Of a stretch of 60,820 nt of DNA, positions 1,461 through 55,785 are shown one piece after another (position 1 is the stretch's first letter; each line of letters opens with the position of its first letter). The position numbers were made by a program, and so were the translations under genes. The notes beneath the pieces were generated by a model. The model did not search any database. It was given only the letters and a program-made list of their open reading frames with translations, and was not told where the DNA came from. The stretch is taken from the NCBI RefSeq assembly GCF_004010195.1, contig NC_057719.1, positions 43,330,679-43,391,498 of the forward strand, written 5' to 3'. The DNA comes from Chiloscyllium plagiosum. Taxonomy: Eukaryota.

Positions 1461-1494
1461 ATCGACGTTTCGGGCATACGCCCTTCTTCAGGAA
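1461..1494 (-). ncRNA. Minimal hammerhead ribozyme motif (family A)
   Basis: Minus strand: uuc CUGAAGA A GGGC guau GCCC GAAA CGUC ga. Confidence 0.7.
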
Positions 1495-1576
1495 TGAGGA
1501 AAGTGTGTCCAGCAGGCTAAGATAAAATGTAGGGAGGAGGGACTTGGGGGAGGGGCGTTGGAAATGCGATAGGTAG

Positions 1577-1795
1577 NNNNNNNNNNNNNNNNNNNNNNNN
1601 NNNNNNNNNNNNNNNNNNNNNNNNNNNNNNNNNNNNNNNNNNNNNNNNNNNNNNNNNNNNNNNNNNNNNNNNNNNNNNNNNNNNNNNNNNNNNNNNNNNN
1701 NNNNNNNNNNNNNNNNNNNNNNNNNNNNNNNNNNNNNNNNNNNNNNNNNNNNNNNNNNNNNNNNNNNNNNNNNNNNNNNNNNNNNNNNNNNNNNN
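1577..1795. other. Assembly gap
   Basis: Run of N. Confidence 1.
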
Positions 1796-1929
1796 ACCTC
1801 TCCGCCCCCATCCCACTCCGGCCTATCACCCTCACCTTGACCTCCATCCACCTATCGCATTTCCAACGCCCCTCCCCCAAATCTCTCCTCCCTACCTTTT
1901 ATCTTAGCCTGCTGGACATACTTTCCTCA

Positions 1930-1963
1930 TTCCTGAAGAAGGGCTTATGCCCGAAACGTCGAT
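1930..1963 (+). ncRNA. Minimal hammerhead ribozyme motif (family A)
   Basis: uuc CUGAAGA A GGGC uuau GCCC GAAA CGUC ga; palindromic ACGU helix III, predicted cut after GUC at 1960; helix I only 2 bp. Confidence 0.7.
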
Positions 1964-2139
1964 TCTCCTGTTCCTTGGATGCTGCCTGACCTGCTGCGCT
2001 TTTCCAGCAACACATTTTCAGCTCTGATCTCCAGCATCTGCAGCCCTCACTTTCTCCTCGATAAATGTGAGGCTATCAATTTTAGTCAGAATAATAAAGT
2101 CAATTTAGTTAAATGGAGAAAAACTTAAAAAATTTTGGG

Positions 2140-2275
2140 ACGGATATCTTGTGGCACACACTGGTAGTAACCTTACTCTCAACCGTGGCCACCCAAGTTC
2201 GAGTCCCACCTGCTCCAGAGTGTGTGACAACATCTCTGAACAGGTTTTAAAAAATAGGTTGAATTTTTTAAAAAT
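2140..2275 (+). mobile_element. Short tRNA-derived SINE
   Basis: A-box-like gtggcacacactgg and B-box-like gttcgagtcc, A-rich end, lies inside a CR1. Confidence 0.55.
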
Positions 2276-4362
2276 GCAGTGTAGAGGGATCTGGGTGTTC
2301 TTATGCATGAATTGCAGAAAGATATATGCAGGTGCAGCTGTTATTAATGAGGGCAAATGGAAATCTGGCATTTATTGCTAAAAGAAAATAGAACACAAAA
2401 ATAGGGTAAGCGCTGTTGCAACAGTACAAGACATTGGTAAGACAGCATCTGGAGTAGGAGTACAGTTTTGGTCTCCTTATTTGAGAAAGGAGGTAATTGA
2501 ACTGCTTCTAATGCAGAGAGATTTCACAAGCTTGTTTCCAAAGATAAAAGGCTTGGAGATTTTGACCACTTAAGTCTTCACTCATTCTTCTGAACACAGG
2601 TCTAAAGTGAGCTATACAAAATGCTAAAGGGAATTGACAAAGTAGATGTAGAGCAGATATCTCCCTGGTGGGACATCTATAATGAGGCATCATAGTTTTA
2701 ATTTAAGGGTGACAGATTTAAAAGAGATAGAGGAATTCTTTCAAAAAGAGTTACGAATCTGTGGAATTTATTACCCAAAAGAGCAGTGGATGCCGGTATA
2801 CCGAATAAATATTTGAGGAGATAGACATTTTAAATTAATAATGGGTTCAGAGGAGGAGCAGGAAAGTGCAGTTGGGTTGGAGATGAGATCAGTCATGATT
2901 GTATTAAATGGCAGAGATAGTGAGGGGCTGAATTGCCTACTCTTGATTCCTAATTATGAATGTCTAAATTTTTAAAATTGAGTTGTTACAATATGCAAAT
3001 TGAAAACATTTAAGCTGAAACTATTCTTGGCAGCTTTCACTGAAAACTTTCAAAACAGTATCAAAACAAGTTTGATACCAGATTTTTCTTAAAAAGACTG
3101 CTTATTTGCACTGATTGGGATGATTTTTTAAAAAATACCAACAGCCATTAGGTTAAATGACTACTTTACCATAATTGCTAGTTTTATTTAACAGCATGAT
3201 GGAAGCATTACCTAAATTGAAGGACAGTAGTTTCAGAATACCAACTTAAAATCAAAGATGAAGTTACTAACAAAAGCATGTTTAAAATCCTCTGTACATG
3301 CATTTTTGTGTAATCACCAGCTTTTAACTTGTAATGCAATACTTAAAAATTATTTATGTTATCCTCTAATGCAAATTCTCTCCCAAAGTATCTCAACAAA
3401 GTAGTGGCTAGATGTTACTTCATTCATTCCAGATTGTCCTTGGTCTATATTTTACATTTCAAAATTCAGGAGTCGGGAAGAGAAAATATTTTCCAGTTGA
3501 TCTGGGGATGAAATAAAGTGAGATAAACTTTCAAAATTGGCATTCTATACACTGACCAATCATGTACCAACGGTGAAAGTGGCATTTATTTTTCTGAATA
3601 GCTTTACCGACAGTGAATTCTAGAATGCGGAGTTACCCCCCAAAGGCCAACTTCTTTAGCATGGTAGCATATTCTGCCCATTTCAGAGGTTTCGCATAGA
3701 GGTTTCGCATAAATTGATTGTCCAAATTCATGAACAGGTCTGATGCAAACAAATTGAAAGCTTACGCAGCTCTCAAAAACTACAGACAACTGCCTAATGC
3801 TAGAAGTAACAAAGAGCTTAAAAGATATTTAAAAATACACATTTCTCTTGACTGTAGTCAAAGTACAACAAAACTACCACCACGATCCACATAAGTCCCT
3901 TTATCCTGACGTTGGTAGCTGAATTGAGTAGCTTAACAAAGTTAATCTTCAATAATCAAAAACGTTCTTCACAAAGAATGGGATGAGCCAATGCTTGTAA
4001 TGCTGTACTCATCTCAAAACAAGCTACAGAACAGAAGACATATTAGGGTTAAGATATATTTTATTACTCTGTTACACTTATCCTATTGTTAAGAAAATGG
4101 TGTCAAGACAATGCTTGTTTGGTATAGTAAACATCAGGCAAAAGTAATAAGAAAAGTCAGTTTATGCAAGCATAGGAGTAATGATCATGCTCTAGGCCAA
4201 CATTCAATGCCAGTTTCAAATGCCCTTGAAGTGTGTCAAGTTGCCTTCTTCATTGTGGGTACATCCACAGTGCTATTAGATGGGATCAAACATTTGACAA
4301 GTTTGTGGGCGTTTTTAAAAATGGTGCATCCGTAGCAGTCATGTTGTAAATAGGGTAGAGAG

Positions 4363-4862
4363 NNNNNNNNNNNNNNNNNNNNNNNNNNNNNNNNNNNNNN
4401 NNNNNNNNNNNNNNNNNNNNNNNNNNNNNNNNNNNNNNNNNNNNNNNNNNNNNNNNNNNNNNNNNNNNNNNNNNNNNNNNNNNNNNNNNNNNNNNNNNNN
4501 NNNNNNNNNNNNNNNNNNNNNNNNNNNNNNNNNNNNNNNNNNNNNNNNNNNNNNNNNNNNNNNNNNNNNNNNNNNNNNNNNNNNNNNNNNNNNNNNNNNN
4601 NNNNNNNNNNNNNNNNNNNNNNNNNNNNNNNNNNNNNNNNNNNNNNNNNNNNNNNNNNNNNNNNNNNNNNNNNNNNNNNNNNNNNNNNNNNNNNNNNNNN
4701 NNNNNNNNNNNNNNNNNNNNNNNNNNNNNNNNNNNNNNNNNNNNNNNNNNNNNNNNNNNNNNNNNNNNNNNNNNNNNNNNNNNNNNNNNNNNNNNNNNNN
4801 NNNNNNNNNNNNNNNNNNNNNNNNNNNNNNNNNNNNNNNNNNNNNNNNNNNNNNNNNNNNNN
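4363..4862. other. Assembly gap
   Basis: Run of 500 N. Confidence 1.
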
Positions 4863-5995
4863 TGACAAGTTGCTGCACAGGAGGCTCCTGAGCAAGATAA
4901 GCAACTGTGGTGTTAGAGGCAAGGTGCTGGCATGGATAGAAGCTTGGCTAACTGGCAGAAAGCAGAGAGTGGGGATAAAAGGGTCCTTCTCAGGATGGTA
5001 GCCAGTGACAAGTGGTGTTTTGCAAGGCTATATGTTGGACCACAACTTTTCACTTTATACATTAACAATCTAGATGAAGGAACTGAGTGTGTTCTGGCTA
5101 AGTTTACAGATGACACAAAGGTAGGTGGAGGGACAGGTAGCATTAAGGAGTCAGGGAGGCTGCAGGAAGATTTGGACAGGTTAGGAGAGTGGGTAAAGAA
5201 GTGGCAGATGGAGTACAATGTGGGAAAGTGTGACGTCATGCACTTGGGTAGTATGAATAGAGGCATGGACTATTTTCTAAATGGGGAGAAAATTCAGAAG
5301 TCTGAAGTGCAAAGAGAGTTACAAGTTCTAGTCCAGGATTTTCTCAAGGTAAACTTGCAGGTTGAGTCAGTAGTTAGGAAGGCAAATGCATTGATGGCTT
5401 TTATTTTGAGAGGACTTGAATATGAAAGCAGGGATGTACGTCTGAAGCTCTATCAGGCTGTAGGTAGACCTCATTTAGAGAATTGTGTGCAGTTTTGAGC
5501 CCGAGAGCGTGTTGAGAGGAGGTTCACGAGAATGGTCCCAGGAATGAAAAGCTTAACACATGAGGAATGTTTGAGGACTCTGGGTCTATACTCAATGGAG
5601 GTGATTAGGAAAAACGGGATCTAATTGAAACTTACAGAATATGAATGGCTTGGACAGAGTAGATGTTGGAAAGCTGTTTCTATTAGTAGGAGAGACTAGG
5701 ACCCAAGGGCACAACCTTAGAGTAAAAGGAAGACTTTTAGAACGAAGATAAGGAGAAACTTCTTCAGCCAGAGAGTGGGGAATCTATGGAATTCACTGCC
5801 ACAGAAGGCTGTGGAGGCCAGGTCATTGAGTATATTTAAGACTGAGTTGGATAGGTTGTTGATTATTAAGGGGATCAAGGATTACAGGGAGAAAGCAGGA
5901 GAATGGGCATGAGAAATTTATCAGCCATGTTTGAATGGCAGAGCAGACTCAATGGGCATGGCCTAATTTCTGCTCCTATGTCTTATGGCCTTATG
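4863..5995 (+). mobile_element. CR1 LINE, RT C-terminal half plus 3' UTR
   Basis: ORF 4932-5498: GPQLFTLYINNLD, KFTDDTKVGG, WQMEYNVGKC, RPHLENCVQF; tail tatgtcttatggccttatg. Confidence 0.93.
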
Positions 5996-7192
5996 CATAA
6001 TGCAAAGGCAGGTCACTGAGAGTCAGCACCATCTAAAGTATTCTCTGAGGTGTCAGTATCTCAGCAAGTGATGGATGTAGGAGGCAGCCTTACTGGTATT
6101 CCCTCTGAGTGAACCTTGTCCTCAGAGGTGAAGGAGGGGTTCTGTTACCTGGCTGTCAAGACCATGCAGATTTATTAGTACCTGCAGGAGACAAATGAGA
6201 GAATACACCACGAAAGACAGGGGCATGATAAAAGTACCTTCACAGTGATGATAATGGAGAGAAGAACACAGCAATGCACAATGCATCTTTCATGCTGCTA
6301 GGACATGGACGTTTCAGGGTCACCACTTGAAGGGTTGTGGTACTCACTGGTGAGGGCCATGATTCTTTCCTTGTGGGGGTGAGAGCTAAATGCTGGGCAC
6401 ACCATCACCTGCCCTGGTTCTATGTGCTCTTTTGAAGGCCGCTTTTCTCTTGAAGTGAGACAAAGAGAGGGATTGAGTGAGATGGAAATGACTAGCACAG
6501 CTGGTAGTGCTGGTACAAGTTGGAGAAAGGTGTCGCGGTGCTCTGAGTGAGTGAGCAGGCATCGCAGCAGACATGTGGTGTGGGAGGTTTTGGTGAGATA
6601 TAGTGAGTGGTAGAGCATGAACCTTGCAGTGACAGAGATAGAGTGAATGTGAAGTAGCAGAGGGAAGAGTGTGGCATTTATCTAGGTGGAGTGGAGGAAG
6701 TCATTGACCTTCACGGTTGGGCATTCCTTTGGACTATGTAAACAGGACTGACCTGCATGGCAATTTTAGATGAGGCAGGCAGAGTCTGGTATGTGGTCTC
6801 TTCTGCTGGTCCTGGGGCCCTCTTGCTTAGCACCCCATCCACCAGAACATCCAGGTTCCCGTCTGCTAAGCAAGGGATCAATTTTCCTTTATCTGACATC
6901 TCCAGGGCAATTCTTTGCAGGGCAGCTCCAGATGGCCAACACTTGTCCTGCTTTGGAGAATTGCATTTTAAATATTACACTGGTGCCATGAATAGCAGGA
7001 CACCCCAGGAATGCTTGCACTTCCACCTAGAGAGAGAAGGAGAATAGAATAGAATATGGACACCATAGCAGTGTGTCACACAGATAATGAAGTGAATTTG
7101 GGAAGAGAGTGTGAGAAATCTTGCTAGACGAGAACCCCTCCGTGAAACCCGTTAAAATTGGCAGTTAATGGATATCTGGTGAAATTCAGCCC
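5996..7192 (-). mobile_element. PIF/Harbinger transposon remnant with Myb/SANT-like DNA-binding gene
   Basis: ORF 6899-6711 MSDKGKLIPCLADGNLDVLVDGV...KIAMQVS...RNAQ followed by a KVND remnant resembles the Harbinger Myb/SANT domain; TIR-like gggctgaatttc on minus strand at 7181-7192. Confidence 0.65.
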
Positions 7193-7961
7193 ATGGTTAC
7201 TCTATAAAATGCATTAGCAGGCTTTAGATTGGCTTTACTAAATTCCCAGTGTATTGCTACTCACAGAAGGTGCAGCATCTCCAATTCCAAATGGGAGGCA
7301 AAATTAGAAGGGAGTTACTCTTGAGTTCCTCCTGGTTGCTAAATATGCGAACAATAATAGCAGTCAGACTGCTCCCCCTCCCCCATGCCCTTTTCATAGG
7401 CATCAGGCCAGAAAGATTAACAAGCATTTTTAAAAACTGGAGGAAATTTAGTAAATACTGATTTGGAAAGAAAAGCCCAAGAATTCTATTAATGTTTGGT
7501 TCCAAGAATCCATCAGACTGGGTTTGCAATGCCAGAAAATCACATCCAAATTCATTTCTGCCCTTATGCCAAAGAATGAGACACTTCTTCCATCTGCATC
7601 CCTTCCATTTCAGTGCTAATTTTGGAATGTCATTGAGAGGAATCGAGCCAGTTAAAACTTGCTGTAGAGTCAGTGGTAAGTGCAGACACATGAGATTAAT
7701 GTGTGGGCTCCACAATGTCATTTCTATGGAACAAGGTTTCCAAGGGACTTTGGTTGCCTATGCAGACAAGCTGACAGAATGTTTGAAATTGTTTCGTACC
7801 CTTCATTGACTTTGGATATACCGTTCTGCATCCCCATCCTCTTATTGAATAGCAAAAGTGTCTCGAAAGTATCACCACTACCGTGCGCATTGCTGTCCCC
7901 TCATCGTGTGGTTCTAGATTACTCAGCATCTACCCTGTCAAGCTATCTCAACCTTATCTAT

Positions 7962-8768
7962 CAGCATTAAACTCATACCCCACTGATTACTAGCTTCCCA
8001 AATGTATACAACCAATTAACTTTAAATTAATTTATCTATCACCTATTCCATAATTACATAATTGTTACACTTCAGAAGGAGGCCATTCTGCCCATTATAT
8101 CTAAATCAGCCCTCTGAGCATCTTAACGTAGTATCATTCTCCTGCCTTTCCAGTAACCATACACAAATGTTTTGATTCAAAAAATCCTAATGCCTTGTTG
8201 AATGCTTCAACTCAATTTGTCTCCACCACACTCCCAGGCAGTGCATTTCATATCCTTACTACTTGCTGTGTGAAAGAAAACTGACCTCATTTTGCTTTTG
8301 CTTCTTTTTCTAAAAACATTTTAAAACTGTACCCTTAGGTTCTTGATCCTTTTACAAGCTACGTCCCTATCTGCTCTGACCAGAACTCTCTTGGTTTTGA
8401 AATCTGTTAAATCTCCTTTTAGTCTTCTCCTCCCTAGGGAAAACAGTCCCAGCTTCTCCATTTTTTCCTCATAACCGATGCGTTTCATCCCTGAAACCAT
8501 TCTTGTAAGCCCCTTCTGCCGGCTCTCCAATGCATTCATGTTGTTCCTATAATGTGGTGCCTAACTCTGTATGCAATAATCCAGCTGAGGTCTAACCAGT
8601 CGCATAGGAGAACATAAATGTTTTTGACCTGAGTACAAGTCCACACTTTTAGTGGGAGCTTTATCTCAGCTAATCAAACAGCATTAAACTCATACCTCAC
8701 TGATTACTAGCTTCCCAAATGTATACAACCAATTAACTTTAAATTAATTTATCTATCACCTATTCCAT
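7962..8768 (+). repeat. 90-bp direct repeat pair (7962-8051 and 8679-8768)
   Basis: 89 of 90 positions identical by eye. Confidence 0.9.
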
Positions 8769-8960
8769 TATTCCATTAGATCTCAGTCTTCAAACCATAT
8801 AATGTAGCAACAACCAGTCTCCTATATAAATTCAACATAATCTCCCTGCTCTTGCCCCTATCAACAAAGCCTAGAATACTATGTGTTTGATTAAGAGCTT
8901 TCTCTGCCTGCCCAGCTACTTGTACATGTGCTGTATATATGTTTGTTTCTGTACACCCTT
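8065..8960 (-). mobile_element. Degraded CR1 3' fragment with a 210-bp internal insertion (8602-8811)
   Basis: ORF 8539-8321 MNALES...YEEKMEKLGLFSLGRRRLKGDL; aaccagtc duplicated at 8594-8601 and 8812-8819. Confidence 0.8.
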
Positions 8961-9189
8961 TATTTTATACTGCCTCTCCATTCTCTTTGTACTAAATTAA
9001 TTGAAGTCAGATGCAAGTATAGTTTCTTCTGGAGAAAGGAAATGGAACAGAACATTTTAGGGAGTCTGGGGTCGAAGGCATCAAGCAGAAAACCAGAATT
9101 AAAGCTCCAATCCCCTCAACCATGATCTTATTGATTGGAGAAGGAGACTCAAGTCTGTTCTCAAATTTGGTGACACATTTCATCCTGAG

Positions 9190-20253: not shown

Positions 20254-20365
20254 GGAGAAAGTGAGGACTGCAGATGCTGGAGATCAGAGCTGAAAATGTG
20301 TTGCTGGAAAAGCGCAGTAGGTCAGGCAGCATCCAAGGAACAGGAGAATCGACGTTTCGGGCATA
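20254..20365 (-). mobile_element. PLE family A 3' terminus, truncated inside hammerhead helix II
   Basis: Reverse complement of 1946-2058; includes tail; no TSD seen. Confidence 0.85.
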
Positions 20366-21634
20366 TAGCCTTTATAATGAACTCCAACAATTTCCCTATG
20401 ACAGATGTAAAGCTAACTAGCCTATATTTATCTTTTTAATTCCTTTATCTTATGAAAGTTTGCTACGTCATTAAAGATAAATTATATGTTAGCCAAATAC
20501 TACACTTTCCAAGATTGTATCATTTCAAATCTCTTGACACTACAGAGCAAATCTGAGTTTTCTAAGGAAGATCCTGACATGGCTCAGAAACATGATGAGT
20601 TCTAGTTCATATTTTAAATTAATTCATACTATGTCAGATACTGAACTGATCTCTTTTTATTGCAGCTCTCCTCTGTCTTTGGTTGAATGTTGCCTTGATG
20701 TTAAGGGCAATAATTTGCACCTAACCTCTGGAAAAACAGGCTTTGTCTCCACGGCTTAATGAAGTATGGAACTAAGTGATCTGGTTGAACCAAAACTAAG
20801 AACTAGCAGGTTGGTTTTACTGAATAATTTTACTATTTATGATTTCTTCCATCACTTACTAACAATTCAGAGTAGGCTGACTAATAATTCTGAACTTTAA
20901 CTGAGTTCCATGGTCTGCATGATTGTAAATTTGTCAGTTTTTACGTAGCACATTGGTAAAACTTAGATTTCATAGTAACCACAGTGATGTTTTGTAACGT
21001 TGCACATTCATTAAGCAAAACTCTCTATATAATTGTGACCAGTAATTAATCTTTCAGGGACTGAAATATGAGCAAAATGTTCAAATTCATCCATCAGATA
21101 GACTGCACTCCATTGTTCAGATATGCTGTTCTTATTTCCTATATCAGTTATGTGTACAAAGGCCTTTTAGTCATGTGGCTAGGCAAAAATATACTCATCA
21201 TCCTCAAAGGGAAAATTCTATGTGCAACACCTATGGTTGCAAACTCAAAAGTAAAGAGACACTATTTGGAGGGAGGTTATTAAACTTTAGAGAATAATCT
21301 TGCTTTAGTTGTTTATTAGGTGAGATTTTCTGGAGTTGCAGGTACACAACTTGAACTTTGAACGTACAATATTTTTCAGAGAGGAAGGTAGAGCTGTTTC
21401 ATCTTTTTGCAGGCTATAGCCAACATCTTTCATCTGATAGGCCTCCAGAATGACACTGTGATTACAGAAAGTCATTGTTGTCTTGCAAGATAGTACCTTC
21501 AGTTTAAATAAAAACATTAAGGGTGCAACATCTCCTGACCTGGGCTTTTCACATAAGTTGATTGGTGACCACTTCATGTGTCAGACAACAGCATAGTTTT
21601 AGTTTATTCATTCGCCGAATGGGTGTCATCTTCA

Positions 21635-21760
21635 AACCCAGTACTGAAGAAGAGTTATTCTGAACTCAACACTTCAACAGATGCCGCCAGATTGATGATT
21701 TTTCTCCAGCTTGCATTGGGTTTGTTTCAGGTTTCCAGCATTTGTAGTTTTCTTTTACTT
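21635..21760 (+). mobile_element. Old PLE terminus with decayed hammerhead motif
   Basis: CTGAAGA A GAGTT attctg AACTC then mutated core; downstream cagatgccgccaga...tttccagcatttgtag matches 47190-47250 and 44455-44530. Confidence 0.6.
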
Positions 21761-31776: not shown

Positions 31777-32253
31777 TGATTTGGAGATGCTGGTGTTGGA
31801 CTGGGGTGTACAAAGTTAAAAATCACACAACACCAGGTTCTGCGTGAATCCATGTCAGAGTCTGTTATCTCACTTTTTAGATTAGAATCAATCTAAACAT
31901 TGTGGCACAGACAAGGAACACAGGGGGCTAACACCTTCAACATCTTAACAGCTTATCTGGCTGACACCAATTGTTACAGTTAACCTGAGAATGTAACTTT
32001 TTAAAACGTTTTGTGATTTACACATGAATGCAGTGAAACTATCATGGTCATTCTAACAGATAAGAGACTCAACAAACAATCAAGGTATTTTTCAATGTAT
32101 AATTTCAGTTACATCACACTGTAAACTTTTGCTATAAATTCTGTGTCTTACAATTGTGCACTCCACAACCACCTGATGAAGGAGCAGCGCTCCGAAAGCT
32201 AGTGTTTCCAATTAAACCTGTTGGACTATAACTTGGTGTTGTGTGATTTTTAA
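31777..32253 (+). mobile_element. Penelope-like element family B: 3' region with short inverted 5' terminus
   Basis: ttaaaaatcacacaacaccaggtt near the left end is inverted relative to the right end aacttggtgttgtgtgatttttaa; contains hammerhead motif; homologous to 40462-40727 and 55621-55785. Confidence 0.8.
32170..32204 (+). ncRNA. Minimal hammerhead ribozyme motif (family B), intact
   Basis: CAC CUGAUGA A GGAGC agc GCUCC GAAA GCUA GUG: 3-bp helix I, 5-bp helix II, palindromic AGCU helix III, predicted cut after CUA at 32201. Confidence 0.8.
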
Positions 32254-34810: not shown

Positions 34811-35101
34811 TAGACCATAGGAGACTGAGGGGGTGACCTTTTGTAGTGGTCGGTAAAATTGAGAGGCATACATAAGGTAGATAGCCAACAGCATTTGCCC
34901 ATGGTAGGGGAGTCTAAAACTTGATGGCATAGGTGTAAGGTGAGAGGGGAGAGATACAAAAGGGTCCAGAGGGCATTCTTTTTTTCACTCCTAGTGTCTG
35001 GAATGGGCTGCCAGATGTTGTGGTGAAAGTGAGTACAATTTCATCATTTTAAGAAACGTTTCGACAGATACATGGATGGGATAGGAATAGAGGGATATGG
35101 A

Positions 35102-35319
35102 GAAAGTGAGGTCTGCAGATGCTGGAGATCAAAGTTGAAACTTTATTGCTGGAACAGCACAGCAGGTCAGGCAGCATCCAGGGAACAGGAGATTCGACAT
35201 TTCGGGCACAGGCCCTTCTTCAGGAGGGCCTGAAGAAGGGCCTGTGCCCGAAACGTCGAATCTCCTGTTCCCTGGATGCTGCCTGACCTGCTGTGCTGTT
35301 CCAGCAATAAAGTTTCAAC
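35102..35319. mobile_element. 218-bp fold-back PLE derivative (family A variant) with back-to-back hammerhead motifs
   Basis: Arms 35134-35224 and 35229-35319 are reverse complements (90/91), 4-nt spacer, ~32-nt tail on the left; duplication atagagggatatgga at 35087-35101 and 35320-35334. Confidence 0.92.
35230..35260 (+). ncRNA. Hammerhead motif (family A variant); mirrored copy on minus strand ~35193-35223
   Basis: CUGAAGA A GGGC cugu GCCC GAAA CGUC gaa; 5' strand of helix I largely lost at the hairpin centre. Confidence 0.6.
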
Positions 35320-37129: not shown

Positions 37130-37308
37130 AGCAAAGTACTGCAGACACTGGAGGTCTGAAGTAAAAACAGAAAGTGCTGGAGAAGCTCCGAAAGTGACAG
37201 AGATGGCAACATCAGTGGGCTGAAGAAAAAGAGTCAACATTTCAAACTCAATATGACTCTTCTTCAAAATGAAGAACTTCCTCAAGTACTTTCTGGTTTT
37301 GTTTCAGT
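37130..37308 (-). mobile_element. Old PLE terminus with decayed hammerhead and short inverted arm
   Basis: Minus strand tgaagaagagtcatattgagtttgaaatgttgactc; right end tctggttttgtttcag inverted to ctgaagtaaaaacagaa. Confidence 0.6.
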
Positions 37309-38670: not shown

Positions 38671-40551
38671 CACATTCTTAAGTGGGTGAAAGAAGCAAAC
38701 ACACGAGGGGCATTACAGCATGAAGACATTCAGAGGCAGAGCAGTCAAAGTCATTGGGGCCTAACCTTCAGGTCCTTTTCAGTAGTTTCTAGAGACCTTA
38801 GTATCATCGTCCATTTAGCTGTACACATGATGGTGAGTTACTGATGCACAGTTTGTATCAACATTTCATTATCATTCTGCTTGAGGCTGACAAGAAGTAA
38901 CAAAGAAACTTGACCTTTGTCTCTGTTGCTGGGTCACTGCAGGTGCAGGGTATCTACATTGAGCACACGTAGCCTTGCGTGATCCCCACCAGGAACCACA
39001 CTGTTTCTCAACAGGAAAGGTTCTGATTAACTCAACGTGCAACTGACTTCTGACCACAGAGAATGAATCATGTAGTTCTGTGCTCAGTTTCCTGGCAGTG
39101 ATGGAAACATTTTCTTACTGCACTAGGCCTTAATACTGAACTGTGTACCAGACAGACTGTTGGTGAATTGCCTTCACTGTCTTGTTCATGTCTTCTGACA
39201 GCAGCCTGGCACAGCCACTGAGGGCCAAGGTATTGAGATCTATGCACCAACAAGAATTCTGGTTGAAATCTTTGGTGTATTGAAATAACTATTTGATGTC
39301 TGCTCAGCATGAGAAAGATCCTTCAGTACAGAACAGATTGAGTCTCAAGATTTGGTATTCTTGGCTTTATCAGTCACAATCTGGCCATCCAAAGAGTAAC
39401 TGAAGTTAATTGAGGAAGAAGAATTGGACAAGAACTATGATGATGGATATAAAGAGTGGGGTAGTACAGAAGCAGAGCACTGTCAAACAGTGTTACAAAT
39501 TTACAACCTGTAAGAAAGCAAAATATTGAGGGATTCACCTAAATAATTTCTTCCTTGGTTACAGCACTGAAAACTCCATCCTTTAATTTGACCCAAATAC
39601 TGATACCCACCATGTCACTGCCATCAAGCTTACAATCAGCAGCTATGTCAAACATTTCAATTTCACCAAACTCCATTCTTCATTTCACAAATGGATATCT
39701 TTGAATCAACATTATGCAAAGGCCTGGGACCTACCTTTGGTACTTCATTGCTTATTCCAGTGCTCCCATGAGATAGCTATCCTAGGACCCTCTGTTTGGA
39801 AGGTGGGAGGCTGCTGTTGGGAATTTGGAGGCTGGGCCATTAACTTGTGAATCTCTAACTCCATTGAATGTCCAATTGAAATATGTTGGAACTGAACTTC
39901 ACATTACCAAACCTGCCATCTGACTGAGTGGCTGTAAGTAAAAGGGTGATGGTAGTGGGTAAGGCAAAGAGGGAGGGAGGGGGGGCAGGCATACTGCAAT
40001 TCTGAAAAGTTAGTACAGGAGCTAATAGTGCCTTTGAAGCATGGCTACACTACAGTTCTGCATGGAAATAGAGTGCAGACATGTTGGAAGACTATGCAGC
40101 TCAATTTGTGTTCTCCTTCAGGAGGAAATATACATGAAGGGTGCTGGATCCCAAAGCCAAGCTGGCTAAGTGTAGGCCATTCACCCCTTCAAACCTATAT
40201 CAGCATTTTAACAGGTGATGGCTGATCTGTACCTACTTATCAGTCTTTAATGCACAACCAGTGACACCTAATGTCATAAAAAGTTTGTAATTGACCCAGC
40301 ATCAATCAAGCTTATTGGAAAAGAATTCCAGATTGTCACACCTTGTATGCGACCTATTTTTAAAATGATATCCTTTCATTCTGATTTCCTCAACCAGAAT
40401 AAATATTCCAAAATAAAAATAATGCAGCTGCTGGAAATCCGAATGGAAATGCTTAGTAAATCATGATGTGAAGGTGCCGGCGTTGGACTGGAGTGGACAA
40501 AGTTAAAAATCACACAACACCAGGTTATAGTCCAACAGGTTTATTTGGAAG

Positions 40552-40586
40552 CACTAGCTTTCGGAGCGCTGCTCCTTCATCAGGTA
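40552..40586 (-). ncRNA. Minimal hammerhead motif (family B), intact
   Basis: Minus strand UAC CUGAUGA A GGAGC agc GCUCC GAAA GCUA GUG. Confidence 0.75.
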
Positions 40587-40641
40587 GCTAGTGGAGCAGG
40601 ATCATAGCAGGATCTGTGTCCTATGATCCTGCTCCACTACC

Positions 40642-40675
40642 TATCTGATGAGGGAGAGCGCTCCGAAAGCTTGTA
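40642..40675 (+). ncRNA. Hammerhead motif (family B), partly mutated
   Basis: UAU CUGAUGA G GGAG agcg CUCC GAAA GCUU GUA. Confidence 0.6.
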
Positions 40676-40954
40676 CTTCCAAATAAGCTTGTTGGACTAT
40701 AACCTGGTGTTGTGTGATTTTTAACTTAGTAAATTAGGCAGCATTAGTAGAGAGGAAAACAAGAATTAGTGTTTCAGGTTGATGACCTTCTGTCACAACT
40801 GATAAAAAAAATTCTCTCTTGTTTTTATCAATTCCTTTTGTCTTTTTAATCATCTCAATTAGTTGACCCCTAAAATCAGGTCTTTCGCAATAGACAAATA
40901 CTGATGAAGGAAAACTATATTGTTTTCTCAGCAACCAAGTGATGCAACTAACAG

Positions 40955-44451: not shown

Positions 44452-45110
44452 AAACAAATAACTGCAGAAGCTGAAGATCTGAAACAAAAACAGAATTTGC
44501 TGGAGAAACTCAGCAGGTCCGGAAGCATCTGTGGAGAGGAAGCAGAGTTAACATTTAGAGTCAGGGACCCTCGTCAGAACTGTTAACAGCTAGAAAAAAG
44601 TGCTATTTATGTTGATGACAGGATATACAGGATATTTGGGGAGGTGGGGGGTGGGGTGTGGAGGGAGGGAGGAGTGAGCAGAAACATGGAGATGGAGCCC
44701 AGAGAGGGAGAAAGGAATTTAGTTAGTCAAAGGGATGGTTGATAGTAAGCCAGGGAATAATAAAAGTTGATAATGGGGACAATGAGTAGGTGAAACTGGG
44801 TTATCTGAAAGCAGCCTAAATCAAGGCAGGGCCTGGAGTGTTGGAGTCAGTAAAGGACATGGAAGGAGATGATCTGGCTCTAAAATTATTTAGCTTGATA
44901 TTGAGTCCTGAGGGCTGTAGAATCCCAAGTAGAAGCTAAGATGCTGTTCCTCTAGCTTGCGCGGAGCTACATTGGAGCCCAGCAGCAGGCCCTAGACAGA
45001 AATATTGGCCAGGGAACATAGTGGTGTACTGAAGTAGCAAGCAACAGGAAGATCAGTGTCATTTTTATGGACAGAATGTAGATGTTCTGCAAAACGGTCA
45101 CCTAGTTTGT
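44452..45110 (-). mobile_element. Penelope-like element, family C: GIY-YIG endonuclease C-terminus, 3' UTR and decayed hammerhead
   Basis: Minus strand KLGDRFAEHLHSVHKNDTDLPVACYF...RKLEEQHL; CUGACGA GGGUC ccu GACUC uAAA UGUU at 44577-44548. Confidence 0.85.
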
Positions 45111-47143: not shown

Positions 47144-47183
47144 GAATTCTGAGGAAGAGTCACTCGACCCGAAACGTTAATTC
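47144..47183 (+). ncRNA. Minimal hammerhead motif (family C)
   Basis: GAAUU CUGAGGA A GAGUC acuc GACCC GAAA CGUU AAUUC: 5-bp helix I, helix II with one mismatch, ACGU palindrome, predicted cut after GUU. Confidence 0.7.
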
Positions 47184-47250
47184 TGATTTCTCTCCACAGA
47201 TGGTGCCAGACATGCTGAGCTTTACCAGCAATTTCTGGGTTTGTTTTTGA
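47144..47250 (+). mobile_element. PLE family C terminus beginning at its hammerhead
   Basis: Reverse complement of 44480-44580. Confidence 0.75.
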
Positions 47251-48214
47251 ATTATATGTTGTTTGGTTCAGTTGCAAGCAGGCACAGTTAGTATTAGTCT
47301 CATCTCAGAGTCAGAAAAGTTCAAACTCCATAATAGATTTCAGCAGCAGTAGCTTGCAATACACAAAAGTAAGCAATTTTATAATCAATAGATCAATCAT
47401 TGCTCTGCAATCTTACCAGATTGCTGGATGCAAGTGCTTACATTTTCTGCTGCTTCTTAATACATAAAAAGATCTGGATGATAGTTTTATTGGTCTGTAT
47501 TAAAATGAGTTTATTTTAAAGAATGACTTATAGTAAAGGAAGTGGAAGTAATGAATAATTGACTTTTTTAAAAAAATTAACACATCCAATTGTCACCATG
47601 TAGTTTATTAGGCATTAGGTGAAGGGACGTGGAAGTGCCATAGCTTGACATGGGGTTAGCGGGAGCCATGTAGCATGAGTGTGGTACACAATTTGGTATG
47701 GAAGTTATCAGGGTGGGTTCAAAGGTATTGGTAGGCATGGATAAGACTTTTTGAACTTATCTTTTAAAAGATTCTTTCATCCAGGCCATGATTCATGACA
47801 TTTTTGTGGTCCTATGAACCACAACACTTTAAAAAGCTGACATGACTCCATGAAAGTTGTAAATGATTAGGATATGCCTCTCCTTGTTGTGGAACCAGAC
47901 ATATCAAAGGTACAGAGTGCATTCTACATCGACACAGTCAAAAGTTAGAAACCCTGAGAACCCCAGAATTGGGTCCAAGTTACATTTTCAACCCTCTGTG
48001 GAATCTTCTCCAATTCAATGGAAATCCATTCCGATATTGCCAACATTATTACTCGATGCAAGGACCAGCCCAGATGCACACTCCATTCTGAGTCATTTAT
48101 CATTGCACATGGGAAGAGCCAGAAATAGTGTTTGAAGAAAAAGTGACTACAGCTGAACAGAGGCCTAGTACACCATAATCCTTAATGAATCACTGTCCTG
48201 ACAAAGAAACAAGA

Positions 48215-48645
48215 AGAATATATGAAGAAAGATTGAAAAGAGAAAAGAAAAAAAGGCTTTTCTCATTGGAGTGAAGAAGGATGAGAGGTGACTCGACAGA
48301 GGTGTATAAGATGATGAGAAGCATAGATAGAGTAGATAGCCAGAGACTTTTTCCCAAGGCAGAAATAGCTATCACAAGATAATTTTAAGAAGGTTGGAGG
48401 AGTTTAGGGAAAATGTCAGAGGTAGGTTCTTTACACAGAGAGCGGTGGGTGTGTGGAATGCACTGCCAGCAGTGGTAATAGAGTCAGATATATTAGGGAC
48501 ATTTAAGGACTCTTGGAAAGGCACATGAATGATAATAAAATGAAGAATATGTTGGTTAGTTTGATCTTACTGGAGTGTAAAAGGTCGGTACATTGAGGGC
48601 CGAAGGGCCTGTACCGTGCTATACTATTCTATGTTCTATGTTCTT
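48215..48645 (+). mobile_element. CR1 3' end
   Basis: RMRGDSTEVYKMMRSIDRVDSQRLFP, FFTQRAVGVWNALP; (tatgttc)n tail. Confidence 0.9.
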
Positions 48646-48884
48646 AACAGAAGTCATGTAAGGATATGAGTGGGTTAATACTTAAAATCTATTTGCGCTG
48701 GTTTGTGACTTTATAATGAGAGAGCATAAAGTTAATATTAATAGTAGAAGCATAGAGGAGGAGATTTGAAGGCGTATTATTGTCACTTAGCCTATGGAAG
48801 TTTTTGATACAAATGGCTATTGCAGCTGGGCCAATTACAGCATTTAAAATGGTTATGTGAATAGGTTGAAAGCACAGTTATTTT

Positions 48885-49098
48885 GAACTTCTTTTTTCTT
48901 ATTTTTCTAATTTTTTACGATGATCTGTAAAACTGGACTTTTTATTTCTTTATTTTTCTCAACTTCTCCCGAAGTATTTGTACTTAACAACTGTACATAG
49001 GTACCTTTGTGCCTAAGATGGTGCCATAAGTAGCGACTTGTAAACTTTTCACTTCACTCGTTTGAAGACATGTGACGATAAAGCTAAATTATTCATTC
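48885..49098 (+). mobile_element. Short repeat with Rex1-like 3' tail
   Basis: acttttcact...acatgtgacgataaa resembles the end of the Rex1 copy at 31220-31260. Confidence 0.45.
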
Positions 49099-49644
49099 GA
49101 ATATCAGGTCAATTAGACAAGTACTTATTAAAGGGTACAGGAAAACAGGAAGTGAATTGCTTACTCCGGTTTAGTAATAGCACTGACATAAGCATTCTGT
49201 TCCAAATTGCCTATCTTTGTTGCATCATTTACTTTCTTCTCGTATATATTACATACTAGTGGATTTCAAGATTGTCTGTTCTGCAAACTGCCAGGAAGCA
49301 GCATGTAGGTCATTGGCATCAACAAGGAAGATCTCACATATGAAGCAACTTAGAAAGAGATTCACATTTGTCACTACGTTGTAATGGCTTCCACTTTCAA
49401 GAACCGTGGTCAATTCCAGATTATAGTATCCATAAAAACACAAACTTAAATATAGAATTTCTGGAATGGAGAATGATTCTCTACTAACTGCTAATCTAAT
49501 AATGCAACTGTCTGTGACAAATGCAGACAGTAGTCTCCTAAGGAATCCTACTGCAAGAATAAAATATATCAAAACCAGCAACAGACAAGATTCATTCAAT
49601 CTACAATATGTCGATAATAGAAAGCTGGTGAAGACACATATTTG

Positions 49645-49752
49645 AGCTGAAAATGTGTTGCTGGAAAAGCGCAGCAGATCAGGCAGCAGGAGAATCGACG
49701 TTTCGGGCATGAGCTCTTCATCTCCAGCATCTGCAGTCCTCACTTTCTCCTA
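49645..49752. mobile_element. Internally collapsed family-A PLE hairpin
   Basis: Minus-orientation arm fused to plus-orientation tail; duplication gaagacacatatttg at 49630-49644 and 49753-49767. Confidence 0.88.
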
Positions 49753-50485
49753 GAAGACACATATTTGCACAGCTGCTCTAGACAGAAATGCATTACACAG
49801 GAAACACTCAAAAGCACATTGTACACTAGTATATGTAGGAAGAGCATATTAATCACACTTCATTCCAGGATATATATCTGTTTGCATGCTGCTCACTATC
49901 CTGGTTCTACTTTATTCTCCCAATTTGATTATGGCCTAATTTCTTAAATTTTATTCCCCTTTTCTGCACAAATATTTCAAGAGTGGGTAGATTCTGAAAA
50001 TTTATATGAATTTGTTGCGGATATTAAATTGTCCTTTTTGTCTAAACAAAGTGAGAAATAGTTTGCAAAGAGTTCAATTCCTTGGAAGTGGTATCCACAA
50101 CTTGACAAGCACAAACTCTTACAAGAAAATGTAAGTGAAATACATTTCACTTTTGCCCATTGTCATGTAACACAGGGTACCATCATGTACTCTGTGTACT
50201 ATAATTCCATGGGAAATGGGCAAAGTAAAACTTAAAAATGCTCAACAACTTTGAAAAGTAATTAAGTGACTTTTGATTGATAGTTTTTCTTACCTGGCCA
50301 TATATAATCAAATTGGCCTCCTTCTTCTAGGACCGCAATTTCCCCCCCGACGTGGTCGACGATGCCCTCCACCGCATCTCTTCCACTTCCCGCTCCTCTG
50401 CTCTTGAGCCCCGCCCCTCCAACCGCCACCAGGACAGAACCCCACTGGTCCTCACCTACCACCCCACCAATCTCCATGTACAGCA

Positions 50486-50799
50486 NNNNNNNNNNNNNNN
50501 NNNNNNNNNNNNNNNNNNNNNNNNNNNNNNNNNNNNNNNNNNNNNNNNNNNNNNNNNNNNNNNNNNNNNNNNNNNNNNNNNNNNNNNNNNNNNNNNNNNN
50601 NNNNNNNNNNNNNNNNNNNNNNNNNNNNNNNNNNNNNNNNNNNNNNNNNNNNNNNNNNNNNNNNNNNNNNNNNNNNNNNNNNNNNNNNNNNNNNNNNNNN
50701 NNNNNNNNNNNNNNNNNNNNNNNNNNNNNNNNNNNNNNNNNNNNNNNNNNNNNNNNNNNNNNNNNNNNNNNNNNNNNNNNNNNNNNNNNNNNNNNNNNN
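50486..50799. other. Assembly gap
   Basis: Run of N. Confidence 1.
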
Positions 50800-50808
50800 T
50801 CCTATACT

Positions 50809-50885
50809 TAACCCTAATCCTAACTCTGAACCTCATCCTAACCCTACCCTCATCCCAACCCTAACCTTAATCATAATCCTGACCT
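50809..50885 (+). repeat. Degenerate (TAACCC)n telomere-like hexamer tract
   Basis: taaccc taatcc taactc tgaacc tcatcc taaccc taccc tcatcc caaccc taacct taatca taatcc. Confidence 0.7.
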
Positions 50886-50994
50886 TAAAGCCTAGCCCAC
50901 CTTGACCTCTTTCCACCTATCGCATTTCCGACGCCCCTCCCCCACGTCCCTCCTCCCTACCTTTTATCTTAGCCTGCTGGACACACTTTCCTCA

Positions 50995-51028
50995 TTCCTG
51001 AAGAAGGGCTTATGCCCGAAACATCGAT
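50995..51028 (+). ncRNA. Hammerhead motif (family A), helix III palindrome mutated
   Basis: uuc CUGAAGA A GGGC uuau GCCC GAAA CAUC ga (ACGU to ACAU, CpG-type change). Confidence 0.55.
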
Positions 51029-51979
51029 TCTCCTGTTCCCTGGATGCTGCCTGACCTGCTGCGCTTTTCCAGCAACACATTTTCAGCATATATAATCAAA
51101 TCAGCATGATTAATTTGAGAGACAGGAAGGTCAATTTTCATAGCTGGAGCACTTTACCAGTTCCCAATTTTGATTATTTCAACAGGTAACTCAAACGTTA
51201 TTCATGGCTGGGCCTCATCCATATGTAGCAGACAAGCTGCCAGTGGTCAGTCCACAATTTAGTAGCACAATTTTGATGTCAATGGACGCAGGCTGAAAGA
51301 AGAACCTAAAAGGGAATCCTAAAACCTTCTGATACTAACTTGGATACGAAAAGTCCATAATTGTTTTTAATAAGATTTTCACCATCTATTTGAATTAGTA
51401 TTGGAGATTAAGATGCTCAAATCCAGTGGTCTGGTTTTAGGTGTCTAATAGAGTTGACTTTATTTGGTCTTATTTTTCTAAAATTGGATTGGGTGTGTGA
51501 AGGTTTTCCAGATTGGTTATGAGCTGTTTTTATAATTCCTTTTCTTGGTTGGGCTGCGTCAGAGCCAAGATATTGATTTTCTTCTTTTTAGATTTTGGTT
51601 CTTGCAATAATTAGATTTTGACTAAAACATTGACAATAATTCAAGAGGCCCTTTAATTGGATCTAGGTTGCCTCTGTGTGGTTTTCCAAGAGGGCAGTGT
51701 TCCAACAGCTCAAGGCAAATGACCAAAGACAAGTCTAGGACATAATCAAAGGATTGAAAGAGAAAGCTGAAGAAATCTAACAATATGCTGACTGTCATGA
51801 CATTCAAGGCTTTCTTGAAGCTGCCAGGGTCATTAATATATCAAGATCAAATGGATAAAATCCCTTTGACTTGCTGGATGGTATCTCTTTTCTTAAGGAC
51901 GACAGAACACCATCTGTACATGCTAAAATAAACATGTTCAACAATCCCTCAGCTGGGAATGCAGTGTCAGCTGATGCAT

Positions 51980-52432
51980 GAGTGCAGTTTTTGACCCCTT
52001 ACCTAAGGAAACATATACAGGCATTGGGTGCCTTCCAGAAAAGCTCACAGGTTGGTTCTGTGTATGGAGGGATGGTCGTATGAGGAGAGGTTGAGTACAT
52101 TGAGCCTAACCTCATTGGAATTTAGAAGAATGAGAGGAGAAGTTTTAAAACATATAAGACTCTTCGGGGGTTTGACAGGATGGATCCAGAGGGATTCTTT
52201 TGACTTTGTGGGAGAATCTAGAACCAAAGGGCATATTCTCAGAATAATGGGTTGCCCAATTTCGACAGAGATGAGGAGAAATTTTGTCTCTTAGAGGGTA
52301 GTGATTCTGTGCAATTATGTACTGCAAAAGACTGTTGAGCCTGGGTCATTAAGTGCATTCAAGTCAAAGATAGATAGATTTTTAATCAGTAAAAGGGGAA
52401 AAACAGGAAAGTGGAGTTAAGGCTTATCAGGT
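51980..52432 (+). mobile_element. CR1 3' fragment
   Basis: SYEERLSTLSLTSLEFRRMRGE. Confidence 0.85.
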
Positions 52433-53298
52433 CAGGTGAGTATTTTTCTCCATTCACAAATGCCCAAAAATCGCAGTTCCTTGATCTGACTTTTTGATCA
52501 ATATCAGCTTGCATAGCAATTGTCTCCATATCATCTCCGCTGCTTTATAAGTCCAATAGAATTTGGTAGCTAACTCACCAATGTCTGCTTGAAGGAATAT
52601 ATTTGGGACAAACACGGTGATTTGTTCCATCACATTTGATTCCTGAAACTGCCTGTTGAATACCTCTGTTAACCTCCTTGGGTGCGCTCAAAGGTGTTCT
52701 GGTTGGAACTTTTTGTTTGCCTTTGATTTTATTTCCAGTACATTCTTCAGACTCAGACTCCCATTTTTTAATTGGGAAGAGTACAGAACCAGTTTCAATT
52801 TAAATGCATTCACAGCACTGACCAAATGTGTTAAGTCTTCTTTTCCTGCAATTCACAGTCCAGCTTGTCCAGTTTTGATGTTATGCCTGTAAGGAACCAG
52901 AATCCAAACAACCATGCATTGTTTGACAACTCACTGCACACTTTGTTCCTCGATTTAAAAAAAGAGATGATTACAGGCATCAGATCTAAAAATCTTTAAG
53001 GACCTTCCCATGACTTAACCACCTCACATCAGCATGGAAGATTAGCTCAATGTTGATAGCACTGAGTTTGGCCAGTAAAGGTTTAAATAAGTGGCACTGA
53101 AGGGCTCTTGCTCAAATCAAATTTGCAATCTTTGAGTTGATTTGATTTGATTTATTATTGTCACATTTACCTAGGTACAGTGAAAAGTTCTGTTTTACAT
53201 GCAGTACAGGCAGATCATAACACACAAAGATCAAAGGGTAACTGAACAGAGCGAGGAATACAGGGTTACGGCTGCAAAGAAAGTGCACAAAAAGCAGC

Positions 53299-55785
53299 CA
53301 TGATTTGGAGGAGCCAGTGTTGGACTGGGGTGTACAAAGTTAAAAATCATACAACACCAGGTTACAGTCCAACAGGTTTATAGAACATAGAAAAGTACAG
53401 CACAGAACAGGCCCTTTGGCCCATGATGTTGTGCCGAGGATTAATCCTAGTGTAAAATAAAATAACTTAACCTACGCACTCCTCAATTCATTGCTATCCA
53501 TGTGCATGTCCAGCAGTCCCTTAAATGTCCCTAATGATTCTGCTTCCACTGCTATCGCTGGCGAACGTATTCCATGCATTCACAACTCTCTGCGTAAAGA
53601 ACCTATCTCTGACGTCTCCTCTATACCTTTCTCCTAATATCTTAAAACTGTGACCCCTCATGCCAGTCAACCCTGCCCTGAGGAAAGGTCTCTGACTATT
53701 GACTATATCCATGCCTCTCATTATTTTGTACACCTCGATCAGGTCACCTCTCTTCCTCCTCTCCAGAGAGAAAGGTCCGAGCTTAGCCAACTTCTCTTCA
53801 TAAGGCAAGCCCTCCAGTCCAGGCAACATCCTGGTAAACCTTCTTTGCACCACTCCAAAGCCTCTGTATCTTTCCTATAGTAGCGTGACCAGAACTGGAC
53901 ATAATATTCCAAGTGTGGTCTCACCAGGGACTTCTAGAGCTGTAGCAAAACGTCGCAGCTCTTAAACTTGATCCTCCTGTTAATGAAAGCCAAAACACAG
54001 TATGCTTTCGAAACAACCCTATCCACTTGTGTAGCAACTTTAAGGGATATATGTACTTGAACACCAAGATCCCTCTGTTCCTCCACACTGCAAAGAATCC
54101 TGTCTTTAATCTTATATTCAGCATTCAAGTTCGACCTTCCAAAATGCATCACTTCGCATTTATCCAGGTTGAACTCCATCTGCCATTTCTCAGCCCAGCT
54201 CTGCATCCTGTCTATGTTGCACTGCAGCCCTGCAATAGCCCTCAATACTACCAATGGCACCTCCACCTTTGTGACATCTGCAAATTTACTCACCCACCCT
54301 CAACCTCCTCATCCAAATCATTTATAAAAGCTACAAAGAGTAGAGGCCCAAGAACAGAACCCTGCAGGATCCCACTCGACACTGACCTCTAGGCAGAATA
54401 CTTTCCATCTATAACCACTCTCTGCCTTCTGTGAGCCAACCAATTCTGAATCCAGATAGCCAAATCTCCCTGTATCCCATACTTCCTGACTTTATGAATG
54501 AGGCTACCATGGGGAACCTTATCAAATGCCTTGCTGAAGTCCATATGCAACACATCCACTGCTTGACCTTCGTCAACCTGTCTTGTCACCTCCTCAAAAA
54601 GCTCAATACAATTTGTGAGGCATGACCTGCCCCTCACAAAGCCATGCTGACTGCCTATAATCACGCTATGCTTTTCCAAATAGTCATAAATCCTACCCTT
54701 CAGAATTCTTTCCAAAACTTTGCTGACCACAGACATAAGACTGACTGGTCTGTAATTGCCAGGGATTTCCCTATTACCCTTCTTGAAAAGAGGAACAACA
54801 TTCACCTCCTTCCAAACCTCCGGTACGACTCCCGTGGAGAGTGAGGAGGCAATGATCTTCGCCAGTGGCTTAGCAACCTCTTTTCTCACTTCCCGGAGCA
54901 GCCTAGGATAAATCTGCTCTGGTCCGGTGGGTTTATCAATTTTAATGTTTGCCAACATTTCCAGCACATCAACTTCACCTGTTCCTCAAAGTTTTCATTC
55001 ACAACAAGGTCCCTTTCCTTAGTGAAAACCGAAGCAAAAAACTCATTTAAGGCTTTCCCTATCTGCTCAGACTCCATGCACAAGTTCCCTCTGCTATCCC
55101 TGATCGGCCCTACCTTCTCCCTGATCATTCTCTTACACCCCACGTATGAGTAAAACGCCTTTGGGTTCTCCCTAATCTTTCTTGCCCAGCCTTTTTTGTG
55201 CCCCCTCCTGGATGTCCTCAATCCATTTCTGAGCTGCTTTCTAGCAAGCCTGTAATCTGCTAAAGCTGTGCTGGATCCTTGCTTCCTCCACCTAACGTAA
55301 GCTGCCTTCTTCCCTTTGACGAGAAGCTCCTCTGTTCTCATCATCCAAGATTCCTTAATCTTACCCTTTCTTGCCTGTCTCAGAGGAACAAATTCATGTA
55401 TCACATGGAACAACTGGTCCTTAAACAGTCTCCACATGTCTGCTGTGCCTTTTCTGGTTGCTCCCAGTCTGTGCTTCCCAAATCCTGTCTGATAGTGTCA
55501 TAACTTCCTTTTCCTCAATTAAATATTTTCCCTTGGTAACTGCTCCTTTCCCTCTCCAAGGCTATGATAAATGTGAGGCAGTTGTGATCAGCTGTCACCA
55601 AACTGTTCTCCCACATTCACATTTGGAAGCACTAGCTTTCGGAATGCTGCTCCTTCATGAGGTGGTGTGGAGTATAAGATCGTAGGACACTGAATTTATA
55701 GCAAAAGTTTACAGTGTGATGTAACTGAAATTATATACTGAAAAAGACCTGAATTGTTTGTTAAGTCTCTCATCTTTTAGAATGA
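53299..55785 (-). mobile_element. PLE family B terminus split by a CR1 (pieces 53299-53379 and 55621-55785)
   Basis: aacaggttt|atttggaagcactagc rejoins exactly as in 40534-40558; hammerhead at 55630-55664 has core mutated to CUCAUGA. Confidence 0.85.
53380..55620 (-). mobile_element. Young CR1 LINE, ~2.2 kb, near-complete RT region with frameshifts
   Basis: ORFs 55437-54886, 54967-54389 (PGNYRPVSLMSVVSK, QHGF, MDFSKAFDKVPH), 54293-53934 (KFADVTK), 53853-53521; (ttctatg) tail. Confidence 0.96.

Follow-up and report, generated by a model that had tools for sequence, protein, structure and literature searches.

The question raised by a stretch of 60,820 nucleotides from the cartilaginous fish Chiloscyllium plagiosum (assembly GCF_004010195.1, contig NC_057719.1, positions 43,330,679 to 43,391,498 of the forward strand; called the window in what follows, with its first letter as position 1) is whether the many short motifs in it that resemble minimal hammerhead ribozymes are genuine, to which mobile elements they belong and whether they still work. 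The original prediction, made from the letters alone, placed about 12 such motifs in the termini of Penelope-like elements (PLEs) and saw in them a very dense hammerhead-PLE system of several families. Our present results bear out the termini, the families and a high density, but do not support a dense system of working ribozymes. With a probability of roughly 0.88, the motifs are minimal type I hammerheads in the terminal repeats (pseudo-long terminal repeats, pLTRs) of at least three PLE families, dispersed mainly through tail copies that lack their 5' part and are likely inert; the motifs of the source elements are likely kept by selection and would cleave slowly, reverse transcription likely uses uncut RNA, and the copies decay neutrally after insertion. 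Hammerheads of this kind have been known from PLE termini since 2014, so for the class as such nothing has changed; it is the copy number that is unusual.

The strict descriptor required CUGANGA, one extra nucleotide, a helix II of at least 4 bp, whose pairing was thereby imposed, and GAAA. It returned eight motifs in the window, whereas 50 dinucleotide shuffles averaged 0.08 (maximum 1); the predicted motifs are thus real. Their C3 residues lie at 1933, 32173, 35230, 40645 and 50998 on the plus strand and at 1491, 35223 and 40583 on the minus strand, and all eight carry one extra nucleotide after A9. About six worn motifs were added by a relaxed scan and site-by-site reading; the predicted dozen loci are present if these are included. 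The shared CUGANGA/GAAA core holds for the strict copies and fails at 44577 (UAAA instead of GAAA, G12 being lost), at 55661 (CUCAUGA, G5 being lost) and at 21644, where the GAAA box and the UH following the palindrome have disappeared. Helix II has kept its pairing at 21644 (GAGUU/AACUC) but not at 47149, where an A.C mismatch breaks it in a motif with an intact core and a 5-bp helix I. The slot of helix III remains palindromic in most copies, yet ACGU has been lost through CpG decay in two of the eight strict ones (50998 and 35223). The helix I pairings CAC/GUG (at 32170) and GAAUU/AAUUC (at 47144) were found as predicted; the most frequent types of family A have a helix I of only 2 bp, a U.U opposition and 1 bp, and one subtype has 4 bp. 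The density is indeed high, with one strict motif per 7.5 kb, but one per 4-5 kb is reached only with worn and truncated pieces included. A scan of the window with curated Rfam covariance models gave no hammerhead match at E values up to 1. No tandem arrays of the motif, that is, head-to-tail hammerhead units of the kind that define retrozymes, were found in the window.

Since helix II pairing was set by the descriptor, only the positions that it left free can count as evidence of structure. These were compared in 226 distinct copies, comprising all fetched loci, both sampled and pattern-selected. U16.1 is present in 220 of them, and residue H17 is not G in 218. Positions 15.2 and 16.2 are paired in 82% of copies (C-G in 104, G-C in 60), most exceptions to the palindrome being products of CpG decay (CA in 33, UG in 14). 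Helix I pairs 2.1-1.1 and 2.2-1.2 are formed in 84% and 88%, each in three Watson-Crick types (C-G, U-A and A-U), the third pair in only 51%. The G10.1-C11.1 pair, with pairing selected but letters free, is G-C in 185 copies and G-U in 38, and N7 is the variable position of the core. This covariation between families supports the minimal type I hammerhead in at least three of them; the changes of pairs go back to a few events between source lineages and are not to be counted as hundreds of independent ones.

The connection to PLEs comes from coding sequence located upstream of the motifs. A family A remnant at 50310-50483 (+), covering the end of the reverse transcriptase and the linker and followed by an assembly gap, is 93% identical to a reverse transcriptase-endonuclease open reading frame (ORF) of the same genome, and its relatives run into thousands (31,730 candidates, 150 of them scored). 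Long family A copies encode a reverse transcriptase, a C-x4-C-xx-C linker and a GIY-YIG endonuclease; their ORFs match PF00078 and PF01541 just below the Pfam cut-offs, and the motif lies directly 3' of the ORF on the same strand. According to the available part of Craig et al. (2021, PMC8557442), a CX2-5CxxC linker between reverse transcriptase and endonuclease defines Neptune-type EN+ PLEs; family A shares this linker, and family B forms a separate lineage. Of the 45 B loci searched, six have this second, more distant lineage, about 30-40% identical to that of family A, upstream of the motif and on its strand; the linker of this lineage is visible only in broken copies. In one family A copy (locus L257, 2548-5064, plus strand), a gap-free open stretch of 839 codons passes through the ribozyme at its end; the ORF of another copy (L271) stops before the ribozyme, the difference probably reflecting a frameshift in one of the two.

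Exact pattern matches in the 3.56-Gb genome number 112,389 for family A, 19,830 for family B and 2,122 for family C, at least 134,000 in total; in all three families they are even on both strands, and reversed controls gave 0. The family A pattern without the extra A matches only 47 times. Sampling at round coordinates, with 128 stretches of 10 kb each (1,218,503 called bases), gave one strict motif per 15 kb, which extrapolates to about 240,000 genome-wide; the first 40 stretches of the sample hold 28 motifs against a shuffled mean of 0.4. The original prediction had proposed a search allowing an extra base after A9; in this sample one extra nucleotide was counted in 82 cases, none in 1 and two in 2. 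A fourth hammerhead family, present elsewhere in the genome and not in the window, has U as the extra nucleotide. Its helix II begins with ATG, as in the anole Poseidon element (sampled loci L103 near 3863 on the plus strand, L231 and L247).

In the available part of their paper, Cervera and De la Peña (2014, PMC4209133) give, for minimal hammerheads in metazoan PLE pLTRs, a consensus with the extra nucleotide, G10.1-C11.1 and the palindrome, and report several families per genome, lone truncated copies, opposite-strand pairs, about 4,000 motifs in coelacanth and about 9,000 in Xenopus, with no activity of monomers and low activity of dimers. The present motifs agree in CUGANGAH with an extra nucleotide, G10.1-C11.1, GAAAN-palindrome-NUH, a short helix I, several families, mostly single truncated copies and pairs on opposite strands, and their CGUC and GCU-H slots occur in the published alignment. 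The extra A as a new variant had to be discarded, as it is already contained in that consensus. The difference lies in number (at least 134,000 exact or about 240,000 extrapolated motifs versus about 4,000 and 9,000, the descriptors being different), in the short helix II (4-5 bp) and in the U.U within helix I of the main family A types. No cartilaginous fish appears in the part of the supplement searched, and no description of these families was found, by title and opening of the abstract, in the shark and elasmobranch PLE or hammerhead literature, Repbase, Dfam and subscription papers being outside the scope of this search.

With more than 10^5 copies, the genome offers a test bed, since insertion ends preserve information on the element RNA. 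The 3' ends of families A and B fall at about +75 to +91 and +119 to +128 from C3, some 35 nt apart, as expected from two starts of reverse transcription. On the other side, among copies extending to the 5' edge of the motif, 59 of 102 in A and 20 of 41 in B stop within the next 10 nt, and the hazard of a 5' end in the 10 nt before C3 amounts to 0.58 (A) and 0.49 (B), versus 0.02-0.16 in all other 10-nt bins. A flank check, by which nine A and four B copies were reclassified as continuing into another subfamily and one gap-adjacent A copy was dropped, left 49/101 and 16/41. More than half of the pile-up copies abut an inverted arm; because about six fold-back units were counted with both arms and about four flanks possibly belong to unsampled subfamilies, about 40 independent A events is the safer figure. 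Around the predicted cut site 5' ends show no excess (6/143 in A, 4/58 in B), which led us to reject ribozyme-cut RNA as the template. Few ends at the cut together with a pile-up at the 5' edge suggest that helix I is where cDNA synthesis usually terminates. They indicate a fixed 5' boundary located at the ribozyme, which has a bearing on the function of hammerheads in PLEs. Searches of the literature on PLE termini and PLE reverse transcription, within the same limits as above, turned up no description of the pile-up.

We infer cleavage in source transcripts, by analogy with published relatives, as well as internal starts of reverse transcription and inertness of the copies. In source elements, RNA would be cut slowly after H17, either as a dimer held by the 4-nt palindrome or with help of the element protein. 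Reverse transcription probably has two start sites, some 85 and 123 nt beyond C3 in the downstream direction, which would give the two observed 3' ends; it would use uncut RNA and very often end at the 5' edge of the motif, leaving units of 90-130 nt or fold-back pairs. The inserted copies would then decay neutrally.

Two other accounts of the 5' pile-up have to be considered. According to the first, reverse transcription stalls at a protein-bound or folded ribozyme, or the element endonuclease cuts its own DNA at ATT before the core, and the pile-up is then uninformative on the transcription start. The anole enzyme does cut 5'-ATT-3', its own pLTR included (available part of PMC11167929), ATT is found at -4 in family A, and several target duplications end in AT-rich letters overlapping ATT. 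Against this, ATT at +29 in family A causes no pile-up (6/143), ATT is missing at the hot spot in one family B subtype, and a stall would be expected before the structure, not after it. We regard this account as possible, though less likely than not.

The second account concerns transcription and requires the RNA evidence, which comes from a single sample, a raw poly(A) single-cell run at about 2% depth, with mixed subtypes and reads not assignable to a window copy. Family A RNA (1,968 reads) covers both strands, with no pile of starts or ends. In family B RNA (4,046 reads) the sense depth is about five times the antisense depth, and poly(A) runs follow positions 32228 and 32231 (654 and 786 reads, respectively), 27-30 nt behind the predicted cut site. 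The hexamer that precedes these sites by 12-15 nt alternates in the reads between AUUAAA and AAUAAA, the latter being present in about half of them, and a GU-rich stretch comes after the sites. An origin of the poly(A) reads from genomic A-runs was rejected, with 0 exact matches among the genomic copies. Family B thus possesses a canonical poly(A) signal whose use is visible in RNA; in the window it occupies 32211-32231 (+), with AUUAAA and both addition sites, the GU-rich stretch following and the reads being family-level. Wherever a copy is inserted in sense, such a signal could terminate host transcripts; in the literature searched, with the scope given above, its use was not found reported. 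Depth across the predicted family B cut is flat (2194, 2234 and 2240), from which it follows that many polyadenylated RNAs are uncut, while a 30-nt cut product could escape the library or the mapping. Neither the genomic copies nor the RNA carry a footprint of the cut site.

On this second account, which we hold to be doubtful, the pLTR would resemble the R and U5 regions of a long terminal repeat (LTR): transcription would start at the 5' edge of the ribozyme, that is at helix I, poly(A) would be added shortly behind it, about 30 nt beyond the cut, and internally primed reverse transcription, starting about 85-123 nt from the RNA 5' end, would run off that end. Short copies would then be failed 'strong-stop' products and long ones would need a template jump or read-through RNA; failed transfers of such cDNA might have seeded the genome with some 10^5 mini-copies headed by a hammerhead, and with portable poly(A) signals. 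Cleavage, on this view, would be an off switch removing cap or tail instead of a template-making step. The hazard just before C3 and its persistence after the flank check speak for this scheme, as does the inverted arm met by about half of the ends, which run-off cDNA snapping back would produce, and the family B poly(A) site at +55/+58 precedes both 3' ends. The initiator-like words TCATTC, TCAGTT and TCCACA, found at these copy 5' ends, count on the same side. However, the RNA reads, coming from a poly(A) single-cell library, contain no pile of molecule starts, none of the six loose ends shown for family A is a poly(A) end, and the doubled fold-back arms and doubtful flanks bring the independent A events nearer 40. 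A Penelope pLTR is known to hold an internal promoter (available part of PMC2377424), but combining this source with PMC4209133, both as far as available, places the start of D. virilis Penelope about 120 nt upstream of the ribozyme.

It could also be supposed that the dispersed copies form an active host system which cleaves or regulates many transcripts. In the 1.22-Mb sample, 57 of 82 strict motifs (about 70%) do retain the palindrome and UH, and presence of the family sequences in poly(A) RNA makes dimers between separate RNAs conceivable. The state of the copies argues otherwise. Mismatch to the group majority was determined at non-CpG sites of 91 family A and 37 family B copies, and in family A it is 3.4% in the core versus 8.2% in the tail (median tail site 5.5%), a clear conservation of the core. 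The catalytic G12, which lies within a CpG, is nevertheless changed in 18% of these A copies and 27% of the B copies; a core mismatch below that of the tail together with loss of G12 at CpG is read as selection on source elements and neutral decay of copies. Close neighbours in the 1.22-Mb sample are inverted in nine of ten pairs and same-sense in one, so that few copies could dimerise, and fold-back pairs would be predicted to bury the motif in a long hairpin. Strand bias is absent genome-wide and the depth across the family B cut is flat; published minimal hammerheads, in the available parts of the reports cited here, show no activity as monomers and little as dimers, and that of the anole depends on its protein. 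An active host system is therefore very improbable, and the picture of a dense system of working ribozymes is not supported. Chance resemblance inside an abundant repeat, lacking ribozyme ancestry, might profit from one founder copied many times, which would outdo any shuffle control, but it is practically refuted by covariation between four families, which differ in their flanks but have in common the core, the extra nucleotide, U16.1 and pairs in helices I and III that vary independently, and by a motif position that is the published one for PLEs.

Several observations weigh against terminal hammerheads kept by selection in PLE sources, the reading we prefer. Conservation of the core over its flanks, the check set in advance, is clear in family A but slight in family B (7.3% in the core versus 9.5% in the tail), and a block of the tail is as conserved as the ribozyme core. 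The predicted minimum-energy fold differs from the active fold in all four motifs tested, the active fold lying 1.0-2.6 kcal/mol above the minimum for three of them and 0.3 for one, and the palindromic duplex is predicted to be worth only -1.7 to -2.5 kcal/mol. PLE coding remnants 5' of the motif were predicted in two places; beside the one at 50310-50483, the family C link is weak, consisting of a broken GIY-YIG C-terminal remnant at 44965-45105 (-), on the strand of the 44577 motif and some 390 nt upstream of it, that matches the endonuclease end with 36% identity (E 8e-4). Among 50 long copies (20 + 30), none proved to be a full-length element in which a 5' pLTR adjoins the ORF. Assignment of family A to the Neptune type by its CX2-5CxxC linker is putative, being drawn from a motif and not from a tree. 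The conserved tail block is common to families A and C, at about +45 to +56 from C3 (for example at 1978-1989), and its ATG opens a short stop-free frame through the family A tail. It could pair with a repeated word near both 3' ends, and possibly represents a signal for the start of reverse transcription or the start of an ORF.

The closest experimental parallel is the anole PLE PAc (Poseidon). Its ribozyme, according to the available part of Frangieh et al. (2024, PMC11167929), needs its protein and is dispensable for insertion in vitro, no read ends at the ribozyme cut site, and the tail is defined by two internal start sites of reverse transcription. The present families share with PAc the two genomic 3' ends, the lack of RNA ends at the cut site and uncut RNA as the likely template; the 5' pile-up at the ribozyme edge is not reported in that part of the paper. 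The fourth family of this genome resembles PAc more closely than do the families of the window. Non-LTR retrozymes and newt satellite 2 likewise carry type I hammerheads in non-coding repeats, but these are head-to-tail tandems allowing dimers, an arrangement seen here in only 1/10 close pairs. A 2026 retrozyme preprint, in its available part, proposes that non-LTR retrozymes derive from PLEs, and samples one cartilaginous fish. With the 5' pile-up and the family B poly(A) signal, the role of hammerheads in PLEs becomes more accessible to testing.

In the window, about 20 pieces come from the three repeat families, including two fold-back units and one inverted pair that spans an assembly gap. 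This pair consists of family A pLTR pieces at 1405-1574 (-), with the intact motif of C3 1491, and at 1827-2058 (+), with the full tail and an intact motif at 1933-1960 whose cut is predicted after 1960. Other family A pieces are a copy at 20254-20373 (-), truncated within the motif and devoid of CUGANGA, rearranged fragments with incomplete core at 49644-49753, the piece at 50894-51087 (+) with C3 50998 and the palindrome broken by CpG decay, and a tail piece without motif at 60741-60804 (-). The family A fold-back unit (35097-35319), its arms head to head, contains the motifs 35223 (-) and 35230 (+), and the family B unit (40464-40731) those at 40583 (-) and 40645 (+); the hairpins predicted for the two units have -191 and -184 kcal/mol, the family A unit forming one long hairpin. 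Three sub-threshold Rfam matches to microRNA hairpins on these units were rejected.

Family B is further represented by the pLTR piece at 31922-32253 (+), with an intact motif at 32170-32204 (C3 32173, predicted cut after 32201), by an inverted tail piece upstream of it at 31777-31839 (-), by a tail without motif at 53301-53380 (-) and by the piece at 55623-55785 (-) with C3 55661 and G5 lost. To family C belong the pLTR piece at 44460-44579 (-), with C3 44577 and G12 lost, and the copy at 47146-47253 (+) with C3 47149; family C-like are a degenerate motif at 21644-21700 (+) and a worn copy with U for C3 at 37138-37267 (-). A heavily worn motif remnant lies at 40751-40793 (-). Right behind the family C ribozyme, a pyrimidine tract ending in CAG resembles a splice acceptor (47185-47200 and other C copies).

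Assembly gaps are located at 1577-1795, 4363-4862 and 50486-50799, two of them inside family A elements; gaps occur in most fetched long family A copies too, which shows that long copies are under-assembled. No host gene emerged from the 20 ORFs of the window, which yielded only two matches to reverse transcriptases of the LINE (long interspersed nuclear element) type and two sub-threshold matches. LINE-type reverse transcriptase remnants unrelated to the motif occur at 4870-5500, 53500-55500 and 55990-56730. Outside the window, loci L004, L005 and L106 contain retrovirus-like coding stretches (gag-, protease-, RNase H- and integrase-like by eye), and those of L004 and L005 harbour inserted family A mini-copies.

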